Below, in pieces: positions 12,296-60,674 of a stretch of DNA of 61,496 bases (the stretch's first letter is position 1; the number at the start of each line of letters is the position of its first letter). The notes under the pieces are model-generated. The model ran no database searches. It had not been told where the DNA came from and worked only from the letters and a program-made list of their open reading frames with translations. This stretch comes from a virus. The stretch lies in UHGV virus genome UHGV-1354897, one strand, 5' to 3'. Position numbers and translations under genes: made by a program.

Positions 12296-14272
12296 ATGCA
12301 ACTCCGCGATTATCAACAGGAAGCAGTTTATAGCGTATTCCGCTATTTTGATGCTGAAAAGGGTAACGCGGGGAACCCTTTGATCCTGTTACCAACAGGG
12401 ACAGGAAAATCGCTCGTTATCGCGGGGTTCCTCGATCTGCTTTATAAATGGTATCCAAACCAGCGCGTAATGATGTTAACTCACGTCAAAGAGTTAATTG
12501 CGCAAAACTATGATAAATTAATGAAAGTCTGGCCTGAAGCGCCAGCAGGTATTTACAGCGCAGGTTTGAAGCGTAAAGAAGTTTATAATCTTATCACATT
12601 TGCGGGGATTGCATCTGTTGCTAAGCATCCTAAAAAGTTCGGCAAGGTTGATCTAATCTTTGTGGATGAAGCGCACCTTATTAGTCCGCGTGATGCAACA
12701 ATGTATAAGAAGTTCTTTGCAGCATTGCGTGAAGTTAACCCGTATTTAAAAATTATCGGTCTTACCGCTACACCTTACCGACTGGGTTACGGCTCAATTG
12801 TTAAGGAAAACGAAGACGATGATGCTTTATTTGATAAAGTAACGTTTGATGCAACTACCCCTGAAGCCTTTAACTGGTTCCTGGAGCAAGGCTATTTGCT
12901 TCCGGTTGTGCCAAAGCGTACAAAGATGGAACTGGACCTCAATGGTGTAGGGAAACGCGGCGGTGAGTTTATTCAGAGTGAGCTGCAAAGTGCGGTGAAC
13001 CGCGACGACGCAACACTCCGAGCACTTGAGGAAGCCATTGAATGTGGTGAAGACCGTCAAAGTTGGCTTATATTTTGTTCTGGTATTGAACACGCTAAAG
13101 ATGCGTGTGATATGCTAAACGATATGGGTATTAGTTGCGGATGTATTCACTCAAAGCTTGATGCAAAAGAGCGTGACGAGATTATTGAAAAGTTCAAGCG
13201 TGGAGAGTTTCGAGCGCTGACAAATAACAACGTCTTAACCACAGGTTTCGACCATCCAATGCTTGATCTGATTATCATGCTTCGCCCAACTGCCTCGGCG
13301 GTGCTATGGGTTCAGATGTTGGGTCGCGGTACGCGTCCGGTATATGCGGAGGGCTTTGATCTTTCCACGCAGGAAGGCCGCTTGCAAGCTATTGCAGCAA
13401 GCCCTAAGCAGAACTGCCTTGTACTGGATTTCAGCGGTAATACGCGTCGTTTGGGCCCTATTAACGACCCTGTTAAACCCAAGCGCCCGGGCGAAAAAGG
13501 TGCTGGTACTGCTCCGGTTAAAGAATGCGATGTGTGCGGGTCGTATAATCATGCATCTGCTCGCTATTGTGGTGGCTTTGCACCAATTCCTATGGACAGC
13601 GTTACACAGGAACAAGTTCAACAATTATATTTGAAGGGATTCAGACTACGTGGAACGGATTATGTTAAAGAAGGATTTTGCGGTCATGAGTTTAAGTTCC
13701 AGACGAAACTTAAAAAGGCAGCAAGTACCGAAGCACTGATCAAACAGGACATTCCGGTAGTTGAAGACTTCAAAGTTACGCATGTGACTTATGCGAAGCA
13801 CACTAAACGCAATGACAGCTCCAAACCTCCAACAATGAAGGTGACTTATTATTGCGGTAGTAAAATATTCAGCGAATGGGTAGCTCTACTTCATGGTGAC
13901 TGGGCGGGTCGTAAAGCGGTCGCATGGTGGAAGAAAAGGACGCATCTTCCTTTACCACAAACTATTGAAGAAGCTCTTGATGTTGCTGCAATGCTTAAAA
14001 CACCGAAATACATCAAAGTTCATACCAATAAGAAATGGCCTGAGATATTGAACTACGATTATGATGGTACGTGTTTCGGTAAGTTTGAAGCTCCACAGGA
14101 CGACGAAGCTATTCAAGTTAAAGTATACGGGCAAGATGGAACAACCGAAGGTCCGAGCTATAACGATGATGTGAGCTGGGATGATATTGTTTCGCAGAAT
14201 ACGCAAGGTATAACAGTGAACAATGTGGTTAATCCTGTACAAGTAGATGATCCAGATTACGTTCCGTTCTAA
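12296..14272 (+). CDS. superfamily 2 DNA helicase (DEAH-type) with C-terminal Cys-rich region
   Basis: Walker A PTGTGKS, motif II DEAH, helicase C-domain features, CDVCGS...YCGG cysteines. Confidence 0.8.
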   Translation: MQLRDYQQEAVYSVFRYFDAEKGNAGNPLILLPTGTGKSLVIAGFLDLLYKWYPNQRVMMLTHVKELIAQNYDKLMKVWPEAPAGIYSAGLKRKEVYNLITFAGIASVAKHPKKFGKVDLIFVDEAHLISPRDATMYKKFFAALREVNPYLKIIGLTATPYRLGYGSIVKENEDDDALFDKVTFDATTPEAFNWFLEQGYLLPVVPKRTKMELDLNGVGKRGGEFIQSELQSAVNRDDATLRALEEAIECGEDRQSWLIFCSGIEHAKDACDMLNDMGISCGCIHSKLDAKERDEIIEKFKRGEFRALTNNNVLTTGFDHPMLDLIIMLRPTASAVLWVQMLGRGTRPVYAEGFDLSTQEGRLQAIAASPKQNCLVLDFSGNTRRLGPINDPVKPKRPGEKGAGTAPVKECDVCGSYNHASARYCGGFAPIPMDSVTQEQVQQLYLKGFRLRGTDYVKEGFCGHEFKFQTKLKKAASTEALIKQDIPVVEDFKVTHVTYAKHTKRNDSSKPPTMKVTYYCGSKIFSEWVALLHGDWAGRKAVAWWKKRTHLPLPQTIEEALDVAAMLKTPKYIKVHTNKKWPEILNYDYDGTCFGKFEAPQDDEAIQVKVYGQDGTTEGPSYNDDVSWDDIVSQNTQGITVNNVVNPVQVDDPDYVPF

Positions 14273-14331: not shown

Positions 14332-14826
14332 ATGTACGTCCTGATTGATACAGATAAATTTGAACTCTTGGCAAAGCATCCCAATTGGCTGACACTACAC
14401 CAACTTGGAATTATTTGTTGCCCTGAGTCAACACTGGTGACACCAGTAGACGATTTACATGATCTTGAAGATGTTGATCTTCAAATGCTTTATATTAACT
14501 TGACAGAAAACTTAGGAGCTGCACCTTATGAACGGGAAATCGTTGAGCGCATTTTGTTTGATTACTTTACGCAACTTCCAGAAACAATCCTGGATCACGC
14601 CCAAATCAGCGCACAAGCCGAATTCTGTGTGGAATACGATATCCAAGGCTTTTGCTCACCTCAAATTGGGCAATACGTTCCGTCAATGGATGAAGGACTT
14701 TGGAAACCTGCCCGTGCCAAATACGATGCTGAACGGGAGGGTGGTATTATTTCCGGTGCCAGGGTCGTTTGTGAGCAACCCGCATTGCAAGCCGCATGGA
14801 CACCGGGCAGAGGGGCAAAGAGTTAG
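14332..14826 (+). CDS. hypothetical protein
   Basis: 164-aa ORF. Confidence 0.6.
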   Translation: MYVLIDTDKFELLAKHPNWLTLHQLGIICCPESTLVTPVDDLHDLEDVDLQMLYINLTENLGAAPYEREIVERILFDYFTQLPETILDHAQISAQAEFCVEYDIQGFCSPQIGQYVPSMDEGLWKPARAKYDAEREGGIISGARVVCEQPALQAAWTPGRGAKS

Positions 14827-14838
14827 TAAGTTCTAAGC

Positions 14839-14866
14839 TTGATCAAAAATATTTTTAAAAATATTC
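14839..14866. promoter_or_regulatory. A/T palindrome (AAAAATATTTTT followed by AAAAATATT), candidate operator/promoter element
   Basis: Perfect self-complementary dodecamer just upstream of the Ala/Lys/Glu-rich gene. Confidence 0.35.
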
Positions 14867-14953
14867 AGATAAGGGGTTGCGTGTCACAAAATCCTTTGGT
14901 ACATTTAACCCCGTTGGTAACAAACGAACCCATAACAATTCGGAGTGAAGAGA

Positions 14954-15757
14954 ATGAGCAACATTGAAGACAAAAAAGCTGCTGCCGCAGCCGCTGCTGC
15001 CGCCGCTGCAAAATCTGCTAAACCTGCAAAGAAAGAAGCTACTGTGAATGATGCAGAAGCTAAGAAAGCCGCAGCCGCTGAAGCTGCACGCGTAGCAAAA
15101 GAGAAAAAAGAAGCAGAGAAAAAAGCTGCCGCTGAAAAGAAACAAGCTGAAATCCGCACTGAAGCGGAAAACAAATTCAATGCGATTGCTAACGCTGCTG
15201 AAATCCTGAAAAACTCTTTGGCTACCGTCACCGACGAAAGCACTGTTGAACAGATCACGGAAGCGGAAACTCAGGGATCTGCAAACCTGAAGACCATTAA
15301 AGAAGCTCTGAAAGAGCTGAAAGCTGTCGTTAAGAAGTCTAAAGGTGAAGACCTGTCCGGTGCTGTAACTTCTGCTCAGGGCCTGGTGGATGGTCTGGAA
15401 GCTACTATTAAAGGCTTCAAAGACAAGATCCGTGCTGCAAAACAGGCAGAAAAAGAAGCGGAAAAAGCGCGCGCTAAAGAGCTTCGTGAGAAAGAAAAAG
15501 AAGCTAACCGTATGCCGGAACAGAACGGTGTTCGTCGTCCACAACCGGAAACTTCCTGCGGTCGTGCCTGGGCTCTGATGGACCAGATTAGCGCTACGCT
15601 GGGTCAGCCTGCTCCGATCTCTTATGTTCTGAACCTGGCTGGTCGCCATGGTCTGAACGAAGATACCATTAAAACTCAGTATGCACGCTGGAAGAAATTT
15701 AATGGTGTGACTGGTCGCGTACCTGTACCCGTACCGGAAGCCCTGAACGGCTTGTAA
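14954..15757 (+). CDS. Ala/Lys/Glu-rich low-complexity protein with a conserved C-terminal domain (paralog of 60060..60674)
   Basis: GGAG RBS before ATG at 14954; run of 12 consecutive Ala codons; C-terminus aligns with the 60060..60674 product. Confidence 0.65.
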   Translation: MSNIEDKKAAAAAAAAAAAKSAKPAKKEATVNDAEAKKAAAAEAARVAKEKKEAEKKAAAEKKQAEIRTEAENKFNAIANAAEILKNSLATVTDESTVEQITEAETQGSANLKTIKEALKELKAVVKKSKGEDLSGAVTSAQGLVDGLEATIKGFKDKIRAAKQAEKEAEKARAKELREKEKEANRMPEQNGVRRPQPETSCGRAWALMDQISATLGQPAPISYVLNLAGRHGLNEDTIKTQYARWKKFNGVTGRVPVPVPEALNGL

Positions 15758-15782
15758 TATCAAAACATATCACGTTATAATG

Positions 15783-15810
15783 AAAGCGCCCAATGAGGCG
15801 CTTTCTTTTT
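15783..15810 (+). terminator. intrinsic terminator
   Basis: Hairpin AAAGCGCC-CAATGA-GGCGCTTT followed by CTTTTT. Confidence 0.8.
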
Positions 15811-15826
15811 CACTAGAGGATTTAAG

Positions 15827-16534
15827 ATGAATATTAATCAACAAGCTCCCGAGTCTCGTTCTAAAGAAAACGATATGTATTTAGACGTGCATTCGGTATT
15901 CTCTACCATTCAGGGTGAAGGTCCATTCTGCGGTCAACCTGCGGTATTTGTGCGCCTTGCTGGATGTAACCTGCAATGCCCGGGCTGCGACACGGATTAT
16001 ACTGTTGGTCGTTCTCTTTACCACATTGTTGATATCATGCGTTTAATCGAAAGCCGTAAGCTGGAATCTGGCAATAGCACCTCACTTGTGGTTATCACTG
16101 GGGGCGAACCATTCCGCCAGCAAATTAACCCGTTTATTGAACAACTGTTATCACGCGGGTATCTTGTGCAGATTGAAACGAATGGGTCTATGCCTTTACC
16201 TAAGAACTTTTCCCAGCTACCTGTCATTGTATGCAGTCCTAAGACTTCAAAAATTCATCCTACTGTGCTGTACCGAGCAAACGCATTTAAATATGTGCTT
16301 AAAGCGTGCTGTGTAAACGTGGAAGACGGTTTACCGCTTCAGGCATTAGATCATCAAGCTACGCCATTTATCGCTAGACCTCCGAAGGGGTTCAAGGGTA
16401 AGATATATTTACAGCCAATGGACGAGCAGGATGAAGATCTTAACCACAGTAACATCCAAGCGGTTGTCCAAAGCTGTATGAAACACGGGTACACGTTGCA
16501 GCTTCAGGTTCACAAATATATCGGGGTGGAATAA
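15827..16534 (+). CDS. queE: 7-carboxy-7-deazaguanine synthase (radical SAM)
   Basis: QueE-like N-terminus FSTIQGEGPFCG and cysteine cluster CNLQCPGCDT. Confidence 0.8.
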   Translation: MNINQQAPESRSKENDMYLDVHSVFSTIQGEGPFCGQPAVFVRLAGCNLQCPGCDTDYTVGRSLYHIVDIMRLIESRKLESGNSTSLVVITGGEPFRQQINPFIEQLLSRGYLVQIETNGSMPLPKNFSQLPVIVCSPKTSKIHPTVLYRANAFKYVLKACCVNVEDGLPLQALDHQATPFIARPPKGFKGKIYLQPMDEQDEDLNHSNIQAVVQSCMKHGYTLQLQVHKYIGVE

Positions 16535-16536
16535 CT

Positions 16537-16797
16537 ATGAGCGAAAAATATATGTTTGAAAATCGTCCTATTGATGGTATGACCTGGAACAAACTCCAGG
16601 AAGCTGCTTGTCACGGTGCATTAGTTTGCACTAAAGAGCGCGATGTTGAAAAGGCCGGACCTGTTTATAAACTCCGCGACCCTTGTAATGAAGAATACTG
16701 CTTTGTGTTTAGCGATGAAGCTGAACAGTTTAGTAATCCTTACCGCACCGCTGATGAAGCTGCGGAAATGAGTCGTAAATATGCGGATCAATTATGA
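16537..16797 (+). CDS. hypothetical protein inside the deazaguanine cluster
   Basis: 86-aa ORF between queE and queC. Confidence 0.55.
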   Translation: MSEKYMFENRPIDGMTWNKLQEAACHGALVCTKERDVEKAGPVYKLRDPCNEEYCFVFSDEAEQFSNPYRTADEAAEMSRKYADQL

Positions 16798-20568: not shown

Positions 20569-21489
20569 ATGAACGTTTTTATGGCAGCAGTTTACACAAA
20601 CGGATATATGCCCGGGCAGCAGCGCTATGAAAAGCTGTCCGAGCATGAGAAAAATATCACGCGCAATCTGCCCCATATTTTGGAATCATACCACTACGTT
20701 GGACGTCAGAAGTATGTTGATCAAATGCGTGCGGATGGGGCTAAAGTGTTTCTCGACTCCGGTGCATTCTCCGCGCACTCGTTAGGTGCTCACATTGATA
20801 TTGTTGAATACTGCGAATACATCAAGCGCAACAAAGACATCCTTCGCGTAGAAGATGGTGCGGTGATGGCGTCAGTGCTCGATGGTATCGGTGATCCGTT
20901 GCAGACCTACCGTAACCAACTTGAAATGGAAGCACGCGGTGCTAAACCGTTACCTTGCTTTCACTTTGGGGAGGACTTCCGCTATCTTGAATACTACATG
21001 AAGAACTACGAATATATCACCATCGGGGGCATGGTAGGACGTTCCACAGACACGCTTAAAACTTGGCTGGACCGCATGTGGGACAAATACATTTGCGACG
21101 GTAGCGGACGTGCTAAGATTAAACTTCATGCGTTTGGTATTACGTCCACAACCATTATGGAACGTTATCCGTGGTATAGCTGTGACTCTTCCTCCTGGAT
21201 TCAAGCAGCAGCGTTTGGAAGTGTGGTTACTCCTCCGTGGGGCCCAATGCGCGTATCAGATAAGTCACCGGACCGCCATCATTTTGGTAAGCATGTTTCA
21301 ACATTAACTGAAATTGAACAAGACGCTGTCCTTAAATACCTTGAGCAAAACGGTTTCACTTACGAACGTTTATCAACAATCTATGAATCACGTGCTGCCT
21401 TCAACTTATGGGCGTATGGTGTAATTGCTACAAACATTAACGCTACCCATGACGGCACATTCCGTGATCGTGTAATGGAGTTATTTTGA
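20569..21489 (+). CDS. dpdA: DpdA-like 7-deazaguanine DNA transglycosylase (TGT superfamily)
   Basis: TGT-like motif FLDSGAFS; sits directly after folE/queD in the modification cluster. Confidence 0.7.
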   Translation: MNVFMAAVYTNGYMPGQQRYEKLSEHEKNITRNLPHILESYHYVGRQKYVDQMRADGAKVFLDSGAFSAHSLGAHIDIVEYCEYIKRNKDILRVEDGAVMASVLDGIGDPLQTYRNQLEMEARGAKPLPCFHFGEDFRYLEYYMKNYEYITIGGMVGRSTDTLKTWLDRMWDKYICDGSGRAKIKLHAFGITSTTIMERYPWYSCDSSSWIQAAAFGSVVTPPWGPMRVSDKSPDRHHFGKHVSTLTEIEQDAVLKYLEQNGFTYERLSTIYESRAAFNLWAYGVIATNINATHDGTFRDRVMELF

Positions 21490-21716: not shown

Positions 21717-21952
21717 TGACACCAGTATGTGAAGAATATATTACTTCTCAATCTAAAGCTGGGGGTAAAGCGGTAGGTCGTGTTGCTATCGCTAAGTTAA
21801 CAAACGCGGGCTATGAACCAAAAGTCACCCCGCCTCCCCCTGAGCCCTGGATATGGGAGAAAAACGGGGGTCGTATTATAGCCATTACATCGTATATGGG
21901 ACCTTTTAGATTAAAGATTGAGTATCTTGTAGACTTAGATGGGGACTCCTAA
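21716..21952 (+). CDS. hypothetical protein
   Basis: 78-aa ORF. Confidence 0.5.
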   Translation: MTPVCEEYITSQSKAGGKAVGRVAIAKLTNAGYEPKVTPPPPEPWIWEKNGGRIIAITSYMGPFRLKIEYLVDLDGDS

Positions 21953-22905
21953 TGCTTGACGCTCTTAAATTTGTTCAAGGCTCCGTCGCTAAAAAGGAAC
22001 TGGTAGAAGGGCTTACCAGCTTTCTTATCCGTGATGGGCAGGTACAGGGCTTTAACGGTGTTATTGCACTGGGTAGTCCTATTGAGTTGGATATTGATTG
22101 CAAGCCCGAAGCTGGGCCTATGATTAAAGCTATTTCCAACTGCGATGAAACAGTGCAGCTAACAATGATGGCTAACGGTAAGTTAAATATCAAGTCCGGT
22201 CCGTTTCGTGTTGCTATACGCTGCATTGATAAAGAAACGCCGCACGTATTTCCTGAAGGTGATTTGTACGAAATAGACGGCGCTCGCTTCGTGCATGGTG
22301 TAAAGTCCGTTGCTCCATTTGTTGGGTCCGATGCTTCCCGTCCGTGGGCTTGCGGTATCCTGATTAATAACGGTAGCCTGTTTGCTACAAATAACGTCAC
22401 TATTGCGGAATACTGGTTTGGTAATCAGTTCCCTATTGATTGCATAATACCTTCCGTTGCAATTAAAGAAATACTGCGTATTAAAGCTAACCCGACGCAT
22501 ATTCAGGTTAGCAAGAATAACGTAACGTTTCATTATCCGGAAGGTCGCTGGTTGCGGACACAGCTTATTGATGCGGAATGGCCCGATATACGTCGTATTT
22601 TAAATGTTCAATGCAATGCACATCCTGTTGATCCAGGTCTTTTTGAAGGCTTGCATAAAATTAAACCGTTCGCAGAAGACCGACCGCGTGTATATATTGA
22701 AAACGGTCTAGCCCGTACTCACTATGATGATGCAGAAGGTGCAAGCTTCGTATTACAGGACCGCACTATAACGGGAGTGTACAATATTGACATCCTGCTA
22801 TTGCTTGAAAATGTGGTTAAGACGGCGGACTTTAGTTTATATCCGCAACCTTGCGCATTCTTTGGGGAAAACCTTCGCGGTGTATTAATTGGAGAACGTG
22901 TATGA
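21952..22905 (+). CDS. DNA polymerase sliding clamp-like protein (DnaN-like)
   Basis: C-terminal segment LIDAEWPDIRRIL resembles the beta-clamp segment LVDGRFPDYRRVLP (recalled from memory); placed directly upstream of the polymerase. Confidence 0.5.
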   Translation: MLDALKFVQGSVAKKELVEGLTSFLIRDGQVQGFNGVIALGSPIELDIDCKPEAGPMIKAISNCDETVQLTMMANGKLNIKSGPFRVAIRCIDKETPHVFPEGDLYEIDGARFVHGVKSVAPFVGSDASRPWACGILINNGSLFATNNVTIAEYWFGNQFPIDCIIPSVAIKEILRIKANPTHIQVSKNNVTFHYPEGRWLRTQLIDAEWPDIRRILNVQCNAHPVDPGLFEGLHKIKPFAEDRPRVYIENGLARTHYDDAEGASFVLQDRTITGVYNIDILLLLENVVKTADFSLYPQPCAFFGENLRGVLIGERV

Positions 22906-23048
22906 CAAATGAAGAAACATATAAAGAGGCTTGTGATAAGGTTATACTTTCGCGCTCAAATAAAAACCATAAACCTACACCTGCTCCGGAAGGGTTAAGC
23001 GACGATGAACTTTTAAAATGGTTGGAGTCTTTTAAAGATGAGGACTGA
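22902..23048 (+). CDS. hypothetical small protein
   Basis: ATG at 22902 overlaps the clamp stop. Confidence 0.45.
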   Translation: MTNEETYKEACDKVILSRSNKNHKPTPAPEGLSDDELLKWLESFKDED

Positions 23049-25023
23049 TGCTATTGGTTTCTTTTGGCAGGACTTACCGCCTGAGCCAAAAGCAAAGAAA
23101 GAAAAGGTTAAACGTTTACCGCCGGAGCGCACTTGGGAGCGCCCGGATTATCTGCCAAACTTAGAGGAAGCGCGGAACTTCCAATACAACCTGTATACGC
23201 AGGACGAACTTATTCAAGCATGGATTAACCGCGAACCGCTTGTATACGATATTGAATGTTATCCAAACTATTTCTTAATCGCGTTTCGCGGAGTACGGAC
23301 TAAGAAAGTTGTCTACTTCGAAATGTATCACGGTTGTAGTTTGAATTGCTTGTTACTTAACTGGATAATGACAAACTTCCTTATCGTAAGCTTTAACGGT
23401 AACGGGTACGATATGCTAATTGCTACGCTTGCGCTTAACGGCTGCTCTAATGCTCAGCTTAAAGATGCAACCGATAAGATAATCGTTGAAGACTGGCGTC
23501 CTTCTGATGTGTTGAAGAGTTACCGCCTTAAGCGTATGCAGAACGTTAACCACATTGATATTATGGAAGTTCTGCCTGGATCTGGTGGTTTGAAACAATA
23601 TGGCGGACGTGTACATACTCGCCGTATGCAGGATTTACCGTTCAAGCCAAATACAATGCTGACGCAGGACCAGATGTTGATTGCACGCTGGTACTGTATT
23701 AACGACCTTGTACAGACGGAAGAATGTTTTATTGCATTGCAAGAGCCTTTGCACCTTCGTGAAATTATGTCGCAAGAATATGGTGTGGATCTGCGTTCAC
23801 GTTCTGATGCGCAGATTGCAGAAGACGTAATTAAACACGAAATTCAAGCGTTAACTGGTGTGCGTCCCCAGCGTCCCCAAGTTTATCCTGGAACAAAGTA
23901 TGCGTATAACATACCGAACTTTATTCGTTTTCAAACACCTCTGATGAATAGTGTTTTGGATATTGTTCGCGACTGCCGCTTTGTTGTTAGTGATAACGGT
24001 GGTGTTAGCTTGCCCCCAGCGTTAACAGGTCTTGAAATCAAGATTGCGGACGGTGTCTACCGTATGGGTATTGGCGGTCTGCACAGCTCCGAAGAATGTG
24101 CTGGACATGGTAAAGAGCCAGGTATTAAGAAGCGGGACATTGACGTAACGTCCTATTACCCTTCAATTATTCTTAATCAGGGCTTATACCCCGAACAGTT
24201 GGGACCAGCTTTCCTTCGTGTTTATAAAAGCATTGTAGACCGTCGTATTGCGGCTAAGCACTCAGGGGACAAGAACACAGCCAACACGCTGAAGATCGTT
24301 ATCAACGGATCGTTCGGTAAATTGGGTTCAATGTGGTCTGTATTGTACGCGCCACAATTATTGATACAGGTAACTATCACCGGACAGCTATCCCTGTTAA
24401 TGCTTATTGAAGCATTCGAGCTAAACGGTGTTAAAGTAATTTCAGCGAATACCGATGGTATTGTGGTTAAGTATCCCGACCACATGCAGGACTTCGTTGA
24501 TAACATGATCAAGTGGTGGGAATCCGTCACAGGTTTTGAAATGGAATCCACTTATTATGACAAGCTATACAGTGCCAACGTCAATAACTATGTAGCTGTC
24601 AAAGAACCTGATGCAGAAGGTAACGTTGAAGTTAAGCGTAAGGGCTGGTTTGCCAAGACAGGACTTCAAAAGAACTGTACGGGCGAAATTATCATGGAAG
24701 CGGTATGTGAATGCCTGGCCCACGGTACGCCTGTTTCTCGTACTATACGCAATTGCAACGATATTAGAAAATTCATTATCCTACGTGCGGTGAAAGGTGG
24801 CGCGGTATGGAATGGCGAATTTTTGGGTAAGGTTGTACGCTGGTATTTAAGCACCAATGAAGAAACTCCCGAAATAATCTATGCTAACTCGGGCAACCGT
24901 GTAGCTGGTAGCGCGGGAGGTGTCCCAATCATGACGCTACCGGATAAAATACCGGACGACATAGATTATGATGCTTATATAGCTAAAGCAGAGAAGTATC
25001 TCGAAGACATGGGATACGCCTAA
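23038..25023 (+). CDS. DNA polymerase with family B-like motifs (compact, 661 aa)
   Basis: Exo I-like YDIE; motif A DVTSYYPSIIL; motif B KIVINGSFGKLG; motif C-like SANTDGIVV. Confidence 0.75.
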   Translation: MRTDAIGFFWQDLPPEPKAKKEKVKRLPPERTWERPDYLPNLEEARNFQYNLYTQDELIQAWINREPLVYDIECYPNYFLIAFRGVRTKKVVYFEMYHGCSLNCLLLNWIMTNFLIVSFNGNGYDMLIATLALNGCSNAQLKDATDKIIVEDWRPSDVLKSYRLKRMQNVNHIDIMEVLPGSGGLKQYGGRVHTRRMQDLPFKPNTMLTQDQMLIARWYCINDLVQTEECFIALQEPLHLREIMSQEYGVDLRSRSDAQIAEDVIKHEIQALTGVRPQRPQVYPGTKYAYNIPNFIRFQTPLMNSVLDIVRDCRFVVSDNGGVSLPPALTGLEIKIADGVYRMGIGGLHSSEECAGHGKEPGIKKRDIDVTSYYPSIILNQGLYPEQLGPAFLRVYKSIVDRRIAAKHSGDKNTANTLKIVINGSFGKLGSMWSVLYAPQLLIQVTITGQLSLLMLIEAFELNGVKVISANTDGIVVKYPDHMQDFVDNMIKWWESVTGFEMESTYYDKLYSANVNNYVAVKEPDAEGNVEVKRKGWFAKTGLQKNCTGEIIMEAVCECLAHGTPVSRTIRNCNDIRKFIILRAVKGGAVWNGEFLGKVVRWYLSTNEETPEIIYANSGNRVAGSAGGVPIMTLPDKIPDDIDYDAYIAKAEKYLEDMGYA

Positions 25024-59973: not shown

Positions 59974-60014
59974 TTTATATCTTGCCTACTTCAACTTAGT
60001 AGGTAATAATAAGT
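59971..60014 (+). repeat. 44-nt intergenic element, copy 2
   Basis: TGATTTATATCTTGCCTACTTCAACTTAGTAGGTAATAATAAGT; same flanks as copy 1, different central hairpin. Confidence 0.6.
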
Positions 60015-60059
60015 ACAACTTAGCAAGACTACTAAACAATCCAACAGAAGGAATATACC

Positions 60060-60674
60060 ATGTCTAAAGTAACCCACCGCGAACAGGATAAAATGCGCTA
60101 CACCATGAAAACGAATGCACGCCGCGCTCTGAAGACCCGCTGGGGCCAGGTTGCACGCGATGCACACGAACAGCTTATCCATCAGGACGACATTGGTTTT
60201 TACATTATCGAGAAGGAAGTCCTTCAGGTGCTGCGCGATCACGAAAAAGCGCAACAGCCGGAGCACAAAGTCCCGGCACCGACCGCCGCGCCAGCTGCCA
60301 GCGTCTCGGTACTGCGCCCGATGGTAAATCCGGAAATTGTCAAAAGCTGCCTCGAAGCTCTGGAGCAGGAGGAAGAGAAAGATATGAAACATGCAAAAGC
60401 TGCCACGCAGGTTTCTGAAATCAAAATCGAAGAGCCAAAAGCTGCCGCGCCAAAACAGGATGTAAAAGCTGCTCGCTGTGATTTCAAAAATGGCGCTCGC
60501 AAGCCTCTGAAAGGAAAAACTGCCGAAGTGTGGGCAATGGGTGACAAACTTTTAGCCGAACTGGGCCGCACGCCGGAGCTGAAAGAAATGAAAGCTGCAA
60601 TGCCTTCTTACAACGGGACGACGGTAGCCATTCAGTTCTACGCTTGGCGCAAATATAACGGCCTGGACGCATAA
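60060..60674 (+). CDS. Ala/Pro/Lys-rich protein sharing a C-terminal domain with the 14954..15757 product
   Basis: C-terminus NGARKP...EVWAMGDKLLAELGR...AIQFYAWRKYNGL aligns with NGVRRP...RAWALMDQISATLGQ...KTQYARWKKFNGV; GC-richer than neighbours by eye. Confidence 0.65.
   Translation: MSKVTHREQDKMRYTMKTNARRALKTRWGQVARDAHEQLIHQDDIGFYIIEKEVLQVLRDHEKAQQPEHKVPAPTAAPAASVSVLRPMVNPEIVKSCLEALEQEEEKDMKHAKAATQVSEIKIEEPKAAAPKQDVKAARCDFKNGARKPLKGKTAEVWAMGDKLLAELGRTPELKEMKAAMPSYNGTTVAIQFYAWRKYNGLDA

Follow-up and report, generated by a model that had tools for sequence, protein, structure and literature searches.

A C-terminal module with a predicted winged-helix-like fold is carried by up to three adjacent genes in the replication and DNA-modification region of Queuovirinae-like phages

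KfrA of the IncP plasmid RK2 combines a DNA-binding HTH domain (KfrA_N, PF11740) with a long alanine-rich alpha-helical tail. Here we describe phage proteins with a related layout, two of which (the products of gene1 and gene2) are encoded in the window, the complete stretch of 61,496 nucleotides of viral DNA that was analyzed. By analogy, KfrA-type proteins are the described proteins that these would be most like in working manner, though the KfrA_N test fails. Both kinds of protein pair a small HTH-type domain with a long region that is rich in Ala, charged, and helix-prone. However, the domain order is reversed, with the Ala/Lys/Glu-rich (A/K/E) tail N-terminal in the phage proteins, and these are encoded in the replication block of lytic phages rather than in a plasmid partition region. 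The C-terminal domain of the phage proteins, hereafter the module, also has an N-terminal beta-hairpin. KfrA_N aligned with the first module helix of one A-type family member (types are described below) with an E value of 0.011 and a score of 16.9 bits, far under the cut-off of 26.1, and Pfam searches gave no KfrA_N match in gene1 or gene2.

A second comparison is with HNH_repeat (PF18780), for which we know of no experimentally defined function. No other Pfam family recurs in searches with the module, and this one does so weakly (E values of 0.044 for gene2, 0.0011 for a trimmed member, 0.0084 for protein P0056, and 5.3e-6 for protein P0162). It is a helical unit of similar size with a G-x-P turn, a Trp in the last helix, and a possible tandem arrangement. 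The Q-N-G-x-R-R-P hairpin of the module is not part of the repeat, and no HNH nuclease is attached; such a domain was found in neither gene1, gene2, nor any of 147 scanned representatives. With a cut-off of 26 bits, gene2 scores 14.6, gene1 has no match, and the distant member P0162 reaches 27.1; just 2 of the 147 representatives match at E < 0.01. HNH_repeat may be a distant relative of the module, but neither window protein reaches the cut-off.

The fold of the module was modeled with AlphaFold from an 86-sequence alignment (pLDDT 92). The model has a short N-terminal beta-hairpin followed by helices at residues 16-31, 37-46, and 51-64, and the three-helix core can be superposed on known winged-helix domains. 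The predicted fold class is winged-helix-like. Compared with the RecX repeats, the C-terminal domain of RPA32, the winged helices of MCM and RecQ, and Z-alpha, sequence identity is 3-15%, and the modeled module differs from these domains in that its hairpin precedes the helices and there is no C-terminal wing. The sole hairpin (module residues 4-9) lies before helix 1, and downstream of helix 3 the model contains only a conserved G-x-x-G-R loop. A Foldseek search against viral models recovered only uncharacterized members of the same family.

The first-pass annotation of this DNA had likened the gene1 product to TolA domain II or histone H1-like proteins. The likeness, an Ala/Lys/Glu-rich low-complexity sequence, does not extend further, and we reject both relationships. 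Gene1 lacks a membrane anchor and has no match to the TolA C-terminal domain in Pfam or NCBIfam. H1-like tails are strongly basic and rich in Lys, Ala, and Pro, whereas the A/K/E regions of the phage family are near-neutral polyampholytes that are almost free of Pro (K+R 21%, D+E 18%, Pro 1%, and a median net charge of +4 over ~107 aa).

Between positions 14000 and 17000 the window is 94-98% identical to Seuratvirus (Queuovirinae) genomes, and relatives over this interval include Aeromonas phage SD04 and Escherichia phages SeppeHuegi/Bas24, CAjan, and Seurat. Gene1 (14954..15757, plus strand) is located in a long rightward DNA-metabolism block that encodes, in order, an AAA_24 ATPase, DUF669, an exonuclease, an SF2 helicase (12296..14272), a 164-aa protein (the upstream ORF), gene1, QueE (15827..16534), QueC, YhhQ, QueD, FolE, DpdA (20569..21489), a DnaN-like clamp (21952..22905), and PolA (23038..25023). 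Gene1 is directly 5' of QueE and thereby adjoins the FolE/QueD/QueE/QueC/DpdA cluster.

Gene1 encodes 267 aa and combines an A/K/E-rich N-terminal region with the C-terminal module. The profile of phrog_11298 matches it at E = 7.5e-112 (residues 16-267 on positions 1-260 of 273), and Seuratvirus records annotate the gene1 orthologue. The start is likely the ATG at 14954; a GGAG ribosome-binding site read from the sequence (14942-14945, plus strand) lies 8 nt 5' of it, and the alternative GTG start at 14945 overlaps this Shine-Dalgarno motif. The N terminus, MSNIEDKKAAAA, is polar. The whole product is 21% Ala, 13% Lys, and 12% Glu, in agreement with the first-pass annotation, and residues 1-185 are 26% Ala, 18% Lys, and 15% Glu, with a net charge of about +5 and a single Pro. 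The annotation had further described the N-terminal two thirds as low complexity, which holds for residues 1-67 (14954..15154; 82% helix-forming residues, 1.5% Pro+Gly, net charge +5) and residues 151-185 (15404..15508). It does not hold for the middle region, residues 68-150 (15155..15403), which is ordinary in composition, contains 23% bulky hydrophobics, and is specific to Seuratvirus-level orthologues on a basis that includes the coverage of phrog_11298.

Helix formers make up 80-82% of the two A/K/E segments, Pro and Gly are few, and bulky hydrophobics (7-11%) are too few for a classical coiled coil. The pairing of opposite charges at i/i+3,4 is only ~1 sd above that of shuffled sequences and thus not significantly like that of a single alpha-helix (SAH). 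Within the first segment is a run of 11 Ala (aa 9-19, 14978..15010), the longest in the protein and one residue shorter than the 12 previously counted. Its length is polymorphic in close relatives (8, 10, or 11), and it is missing from more distant orthologues. We therefore consider it a slippage-prone tract and reject it as a conserved functional element.

Both module genes had appeared GC-rich by eye. Measured against the window (0.446), GC content is 0.491 for gene1 and 0.524 for gene2, the 94th and 99th percentiles, respectively, among 800-bp windows. The GC3 of gene1 is ordinary, at 0.403 (z -0.26), and its excess is confined to codon positions 1 and 2 (Ala, Glu, and Gly codons). The gene1 excess is therefore an effect of amino acid composition, and a horizontal origin based on GC content is rejected. 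In gene2 the third codon positions themselves are GC-rich (GC3 0.546, z +2.26).

The module of gene1 occupies aa 186-255 (15509..15718, plus strand), predicted to form a beta-hairpin (QNGVRRP) and three helices. A C terminus common to gene1 and the product of 60060..60674 (gene2), noticed in the initial reading, was confirmed by BLASTP (29% identity over 69 aa, E = 2e-6). The Smith-Waterman score of the pair is 82, compared with 23.4 +/- 4.4 for shuffled sequences (z 13.3), and none of 2000 shuffles reached 82. Both proteins match phrog_21588 and phrog_18634. The module superfamily was defined in the present analysis (profiles A1 and A3); profile A3 matches gene1 with E = 8.1e-35 and gene2 with E = 4.8e-16, and these are the only two copies in a six-frame translation of the window. 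Searches of Pfam, NCBIfam, and PDB sequences with gene1, gene2, or the module returned nothing above threshold; the PDB matches were spurious (designed proteins and caveolae proteins). The module thus withstands both outcomes that the first-pass annotation had named as refuting it, an alignment no better than shuffles and a match to a characterized domain.

The hallmarks of the module, over ~70 aa, are the Q-N-G-x-R-R-P hairpin, a Trp in helix 1, a G-x-P turn, and in helix 3 the motif Y-x-x-W-[RK]-K-[FY]-x-G, which is part of the module definition in gene1 and gene2. Conserved columns include N6, G7, P11, W21, D25, Y58, W61, K63, F64, and G66; P11 and W61 are invariant, and N6, W21, and K63 nearly so. 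Conserved basic columns (9, 10, 55, 62, 63, and 70) fall in the hairpin and helix 3, and the median net charge of the module is +5.

Word-indexed protein searches recovered just 3, 18, and 9 relatives and no Pfam-annotated fusions, and an exhaustive profile search was needed. When a seven-sequence profile was compared exhaustively with 1.84 billion representatives, 2159 clusters (defined at 50% identity) matched at E <= 0.001 and 1055 at E <= 1e-10. Almost all of the best 150 matches are proteins of ~100-350 aa with the module at the C terminus, and the region preceding it has a median A+K+E fraction of 0.59. One match, the 7432-aa protein P0024 with 34 matching stretches, was rejected as a false positive; its Ig-like repeats carry YQWQK. 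Some proteins contain two or three tandem modules, and one relative has two modules inside a Mu-F-like head protein with an HExxH C terminus.

In ~100 phage contigs (80 loci from IMG/VR and about 20 further), the module is found in one to three genes that follow one another in the interval from the SF2 helicase to QueE. The gene order is helicase, one to three module genes, and then QueE-QueC-QueD-FolE-DpdA-clamp-PolA. Two module genes lie within 12 kb of each other in 48 of the 83 fetched loci (the window excluded), and three in a further 3. This module family and three-gene cassette are real and previously unnamed. Cassette synteny does not provide independent evidence of function, because these phages form one broad, related lineage.

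Three types of carrier were distinguished. The N-terminal part of type A takes one of two forms: a small domain marked by K-S-N-A-x-R-A, or a SAP/Rho_N-like motif, frequently accompanied by a CxxC...CxxC zinc ribbon. Type M consists of a phrog_7864 domain followed by a divergent module; the module profile matches (E < 1e-3) 55 of the 56 M proteins that have at least 50 residues past the phrog_7864 domain. Type B is characterized by a conserved A/K/E-rich region (median A+K+E 0.66). Genes of this type immediately precede QueE at almost every locus, also in distant phages of Stenotrophomonas, Microcystis, and Rhizobium. In nine representative proteins, one chain combines the M domain with an A/K/E region and the module. 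These fusions imply a functional link between the upstream ORF and gene1, and they suggest that the A/K/E region links a folded domain to the module. The PHROG families concerned (11298, 22313, 18634, 21588, 17772, and 7864) are all labeled as unknown function; they divide a single domain superfamily according to N-terminal parts that vary, and their labels therefore reveal neither the module nor the three-gene cassette.

From sequence comparisons, gene1 is assigned to type B, gene2 to a relocated type A, and the upstream ORF to a type M without module. Gene2 (60060..60674, plus strand) encodes 204 aa, all of which align with phrog_22313 (E = 1.8e-142, 1-204 of 204). It is the third gene of the same rightward DNA-metabolism block, 5' of the primase and just past a divergent switch region with many small early genes. 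The N-terminal domain of its product (aa 14-67, 60099..60260) includes the motif Y-T-M-K-T-N-A-R-R-A-L-K and occurs also in the A types of other phages. When 14 N termini of the latter were made into a profile, gene2 was its sole match in the six-frame window (E = 1e-5), which identifies gene2 as the relocated type A. The module of gene2 spans aa 138-203 (60471..60668), as delimited by the module HMM and BLASTP. The upstream ORF (14332..14826, plus strand; 164 aa) covers positions 1-163 of the 242 of phrog_7864 and stops before the module, which has been lost. Its counterparts in other phages have a divergent module or are fused to an A/K/E region plus module, and it is similar to one such fusion, P0061 (BLASTP E = 4e-8). 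The phrog_7864 domain is alpha/beta in the structure predicted for the upstream ORF with 10 homologous sequences.

By tblastn the module was detected in 151 isolated phages, with hosts in Escherichia, Pseudomonas, Vibrio, Rhizobium, Stenotrophomonas, Alteromonas, Sphingomonas, Microcystis, Synechococcus, and other genera. A scan of 185,579 species genomes with a profile from a tighter alignment (A4) found six matching contigs only, all from MAGs and ~24-112 kb in length. Because all six have phage gene order, we conclude that the module family is phage-specific. Our literature searches found no study of gene1, gene2, or the cassette genes and no report of a gene1 deletion. Eleven virion proteins have been identified in phage Vid5 (PMC6266253), and the gene1-type orthologue is absent from this set.

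The first-pass annotation proposed an effector domain shared by two disordered scaffolds, in a host-interaction or DNA-binding family. The scaffold description fails for gene2, which has a recognizable N-terminal domain, and the module is the constant part of proteins with at least three N-terminal types. Because these different N-terminal parts belong to neighboring genes, the module is better regarded as an anchor than as an effector. DNA binding is the best-supported reading, as a putative activity, given the winged-helix-like model and the conserved basic patch. The weak, sub-threshold similarities to HNH_repeat and KfrA_N, and those of partner domains to Rho_N and Zn_Ribbon_TF in Pfam, also appear to point in this direction. 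Our preferred, tentative proposal is that the module is a basic, winged-helix-like, putative DNA-binding anchor on accessory proteins of the replication and modification region. Gene1 and gene2 would then belong to a phage-specific set of accessory proteins with one common C-terminal domain, which would anchor its carriers to nucleic acid, most likely DNA. The predicted contacts are R9 and R10 of the hairpin, R/K55, R60, R62, and K63 of helix 3, and R70. The N-terminal place of the hairpin, where a canonical wing would be C-terminal, speaks against this reading. The A/K/E region may serve as a helix-prone spacer or interaction surface, possibly an extended spacer in the fusions with the M domain, and the accessory proteins would act in phage DNA replication or modification. 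A distinctly unlikely elaboration is that A, M, and B form a three-component DNA-associated complex, held together by the common anchor, that organizes newly replicated DNA or couples replication (SF2 helicase, clamp, and PolA) to modification by DpdA. If true, this would be an unrecognized chromatin or replication-coupling module of a siphovirus lineage that extends from cyanophages to coliphages.

The module could instead be a protein docking or hetero-oligomerization domain that ties A, M, and B to each other or to a hub without contacting DNA directly, which we consider unlikely but credible. Candidate hubs are the adjacent SF2 helicase, the DnaN-like clamp, PolA, or a universal host protein. 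One domain on three adjacent proteins with different N termini is what would be expected of clients of a single hub, and the helicase is constantly adjacent to the cassette. Even between phages whose hosts are distant, the surface-exposed helix 3 and hairpin show very strong conservation, and that of helix 3, the highest in the module, fits a protein partner as well as generic contacts to the DNA backbone. However, the conserved surface is strongly basic, the module as a whole is positively charged, the partner domains are of nucleic acid type (SAP/Rho_N-like and zinc ribbon), and the tandem repeats and the weak HNH_repeat and KfrA_N similarity fit DNA binding. A role in transcription, with gene1 activating middle or late phage genes, is quite improbable. 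It has been suggested by database labels ("transcriptional activator" and "FtrA domain-containing" in records of CAjan, SD04, Vid5, Iggy, R7M, and Vibrio phages), an HTH-like fold is compatible with a regulator, and no RNA polymerase is annotated in the regions examined, from which one may infer that the host enzyme must be redirected. We reject the FtrA/AraC label, as neither HTH_18 nor a DJ-1/PfpI-like domain matches in Pfam or NCBIfam at E <= 1; nor does any other regulator family match there, and the phrase "transcriptional activator FtrA" combined with "phage" was not found in the literature searched. In addition, the putative recognition helix is the most conserved part of the module, which would be unusual if promoters differ among phages of unrelated hosts, and three paralogous activators per genome would be unusual. 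Least probable of all, by a little, is that the two products are host-takeover or anti-defense factors directed at host DNA or a defense protein. The position of gene2 near the start of a rightward early/middle block, beside the divergent switch region, would suit such a role. Turnover may be rapid, judging from the changing N-terminal parts, the relocation, and the elevated GC3 of gene2, and two modules in a Mu-F-type protein with an HExxH C terminus is a context typical of injected effectors. Yet Pfam and NCBIfam give no match, PHROGs gives only families of unknown function, and type B is strictly syntenic in the replication block across very distant hosts, whereas counter-defense genes are usually patchy.

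The location of the cassette raises the question of a link to DpdA. The cassette could bring DpdA or the preQ0 enzymes to newly replicated phage DNA or recognize dPreQ0-modified DNA, by analogy with DpdB, the DNA-binding partner of bacterial DpdA; such a helper role is improbable. In its favor, gene1-type genes are directly 5' of QueE in nearly all loci, and phage records with the module and with the same DpdA type are almost equally numerous in each host genus (Escherichia, 41 versus 41; Pseudomonas, 31 versus 32; Vibrio, 23 versus 23; and Rhizobium, 13 versus 14). DpdA genes of actinophages (rows H131 and H132) adjoin ParB-like genes instead. [quoted passage not shown] This sufficiency implies that no further phage factor is required for insertion, and it leads us to reject an obligatory DpdA cofactor. 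Two loci have the cassette without adjacent Que genes (L058, followed by DUF4406-clamp-PolA, and L098, followed by terminase), and the best module matches include none of the 56 Mycobacterium phage records with a distant DpdA. Given these results, common descent of a single phage lineage is the best explanation for the association of module and DpdA. We continue to favor, tentatively, the putative DNA-binding anchor.

These results bring together a sizable family that, with 2159 clusters, has no Pfam, NCBIfam, or structural entry. The module is part of the core DNA-metabolism block of Queuovirinae-like phages, which include CAjan, 9g, and members of the BASEL collection; CAjan and 9g are model systems for 7-deazaguanine DNA modification, and dPreQ0 makes up ~32% of G in CAjan. 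Once a common anchor is recognized on as many as three neighboring genes and on a relocated copy, several separate hypothetical proteins in each genome can be studied as one testable unit, and the propagated misannotation "FtrA transcriptional activator" is corrected. Should the anchor turn out to bind DNA or a hub of the replisome, its carriers would represent accessory factors of phage replication or modification not recognized before; should it bind neither, this would be an ordinary orphan family.

Other features of the neighborhood are relevant to its annotation. No tRNA genes or Rfam matches were found in the window. An antisense ORF exceeds the true gene in length and is a trap for gene calling. 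Right behind gene1 is an intrinsic-terminator-like hairpin (15782..15805, plus strand) with a 9-bp stem, 6 GC pairs, and a T-run, and the record of phage SA80RD annotates the same hairpin.

Beyond the two genes that share it, the C-terminal module (a winged-helix-like domain of about 70 residues) occurs in a protein of a different kind. P0162, a metagenomic protein of 665 aa recovered by the module profile search, is a Mu-F-like head-morphogenesis protein that bears two modules in tandem, with a poly-Pro linker between them, and an HExxH-containing domain at its C terminus. Here the module is in the context of a virion or injected protein. P0024, a giant protein of 7432 aa with Ig-like repeats, was rejected as a module carrier; its match (E 7e-34) arises from 34 partial matches to the YQWQK motif and is a false positive. 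The total of 2159 module clusters (E<=0.001) includes some repeat artefacts. Among viral structure models (BFVD), four proteins with consecutive-style accessions (A5A3S7, A5A3S9, A5A3V4, and A5A3V9) each match the module fold. They presumably all derive from one phage genome, so the module may occur four times per genome in some phages.

Opposite gene 1 (14954..15757) lies a 302-aa antisense ORF (14855..15763, minus strand) that is longer than the true gene product (267-270 aa). This ORF is a by-product of codon use in gene 1, because GCN, AAR, and GAR codons give no stops on the opposite strand. In several related loci, gene picking by longest ORF called the strand opposite the true gene; forcing in the module ORFs corrected this.

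The 127-nt gap 5' of gene 1 contains a perfect 18-bp palindrome (AATATTTTT/AAAAATATT; 14848..14865) and an imperfect hairpin with 18-nt arms (14873..14912), and an imperfect inverted repeat with 22-nt arms (59980..60028) lies just 5' of gene 2. All three are possible regulatory or terminator-like elements; the annotation of phage SA80RD places a terminator at the first hairpin region. At the end of gene 1, the order of signals ahead of QueE is odd: a sigma-70-like promoter match (TTGTAA-18-TATAAT, 10/12; within 15752..15805) overlaps the gene 1 stop codon, and a strong terminator-like hairpin (15782..15805) comes directly after it. Across the whole 61.5-kb window, ARAGORN predicted no tRNA genes and no Rfam family scored above its gathering score.

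The 86-aa ORF located 3' of QueE (16537..16797) is found in the window and in SD04 and is missing from most close Seuratvirus relatives. It probably makes up most of the gap in those relatives' 91% coverage of the 3-kb query. The GC3 of gene 2 (60060..60674) is 0.546 (genome mean 0.418; z +2.26), a high value not matched in gene 1, and this fits relocation or replacement of the A-type gene in Seuratviruses.

The neighbors of DpdA, an enzyme of 7-deazaguanine DNA modification, also differ between lineages. In the actinophages Gordonia phage Sour (H131) and Mycobacterium phage Quesadilla (H132), a distant DpdA gene lies at the end of the genome, beside a ParB-like gene, whereas the Queuovirinae-like lineage has the module cassette and lacks the ParB-like neighbor.
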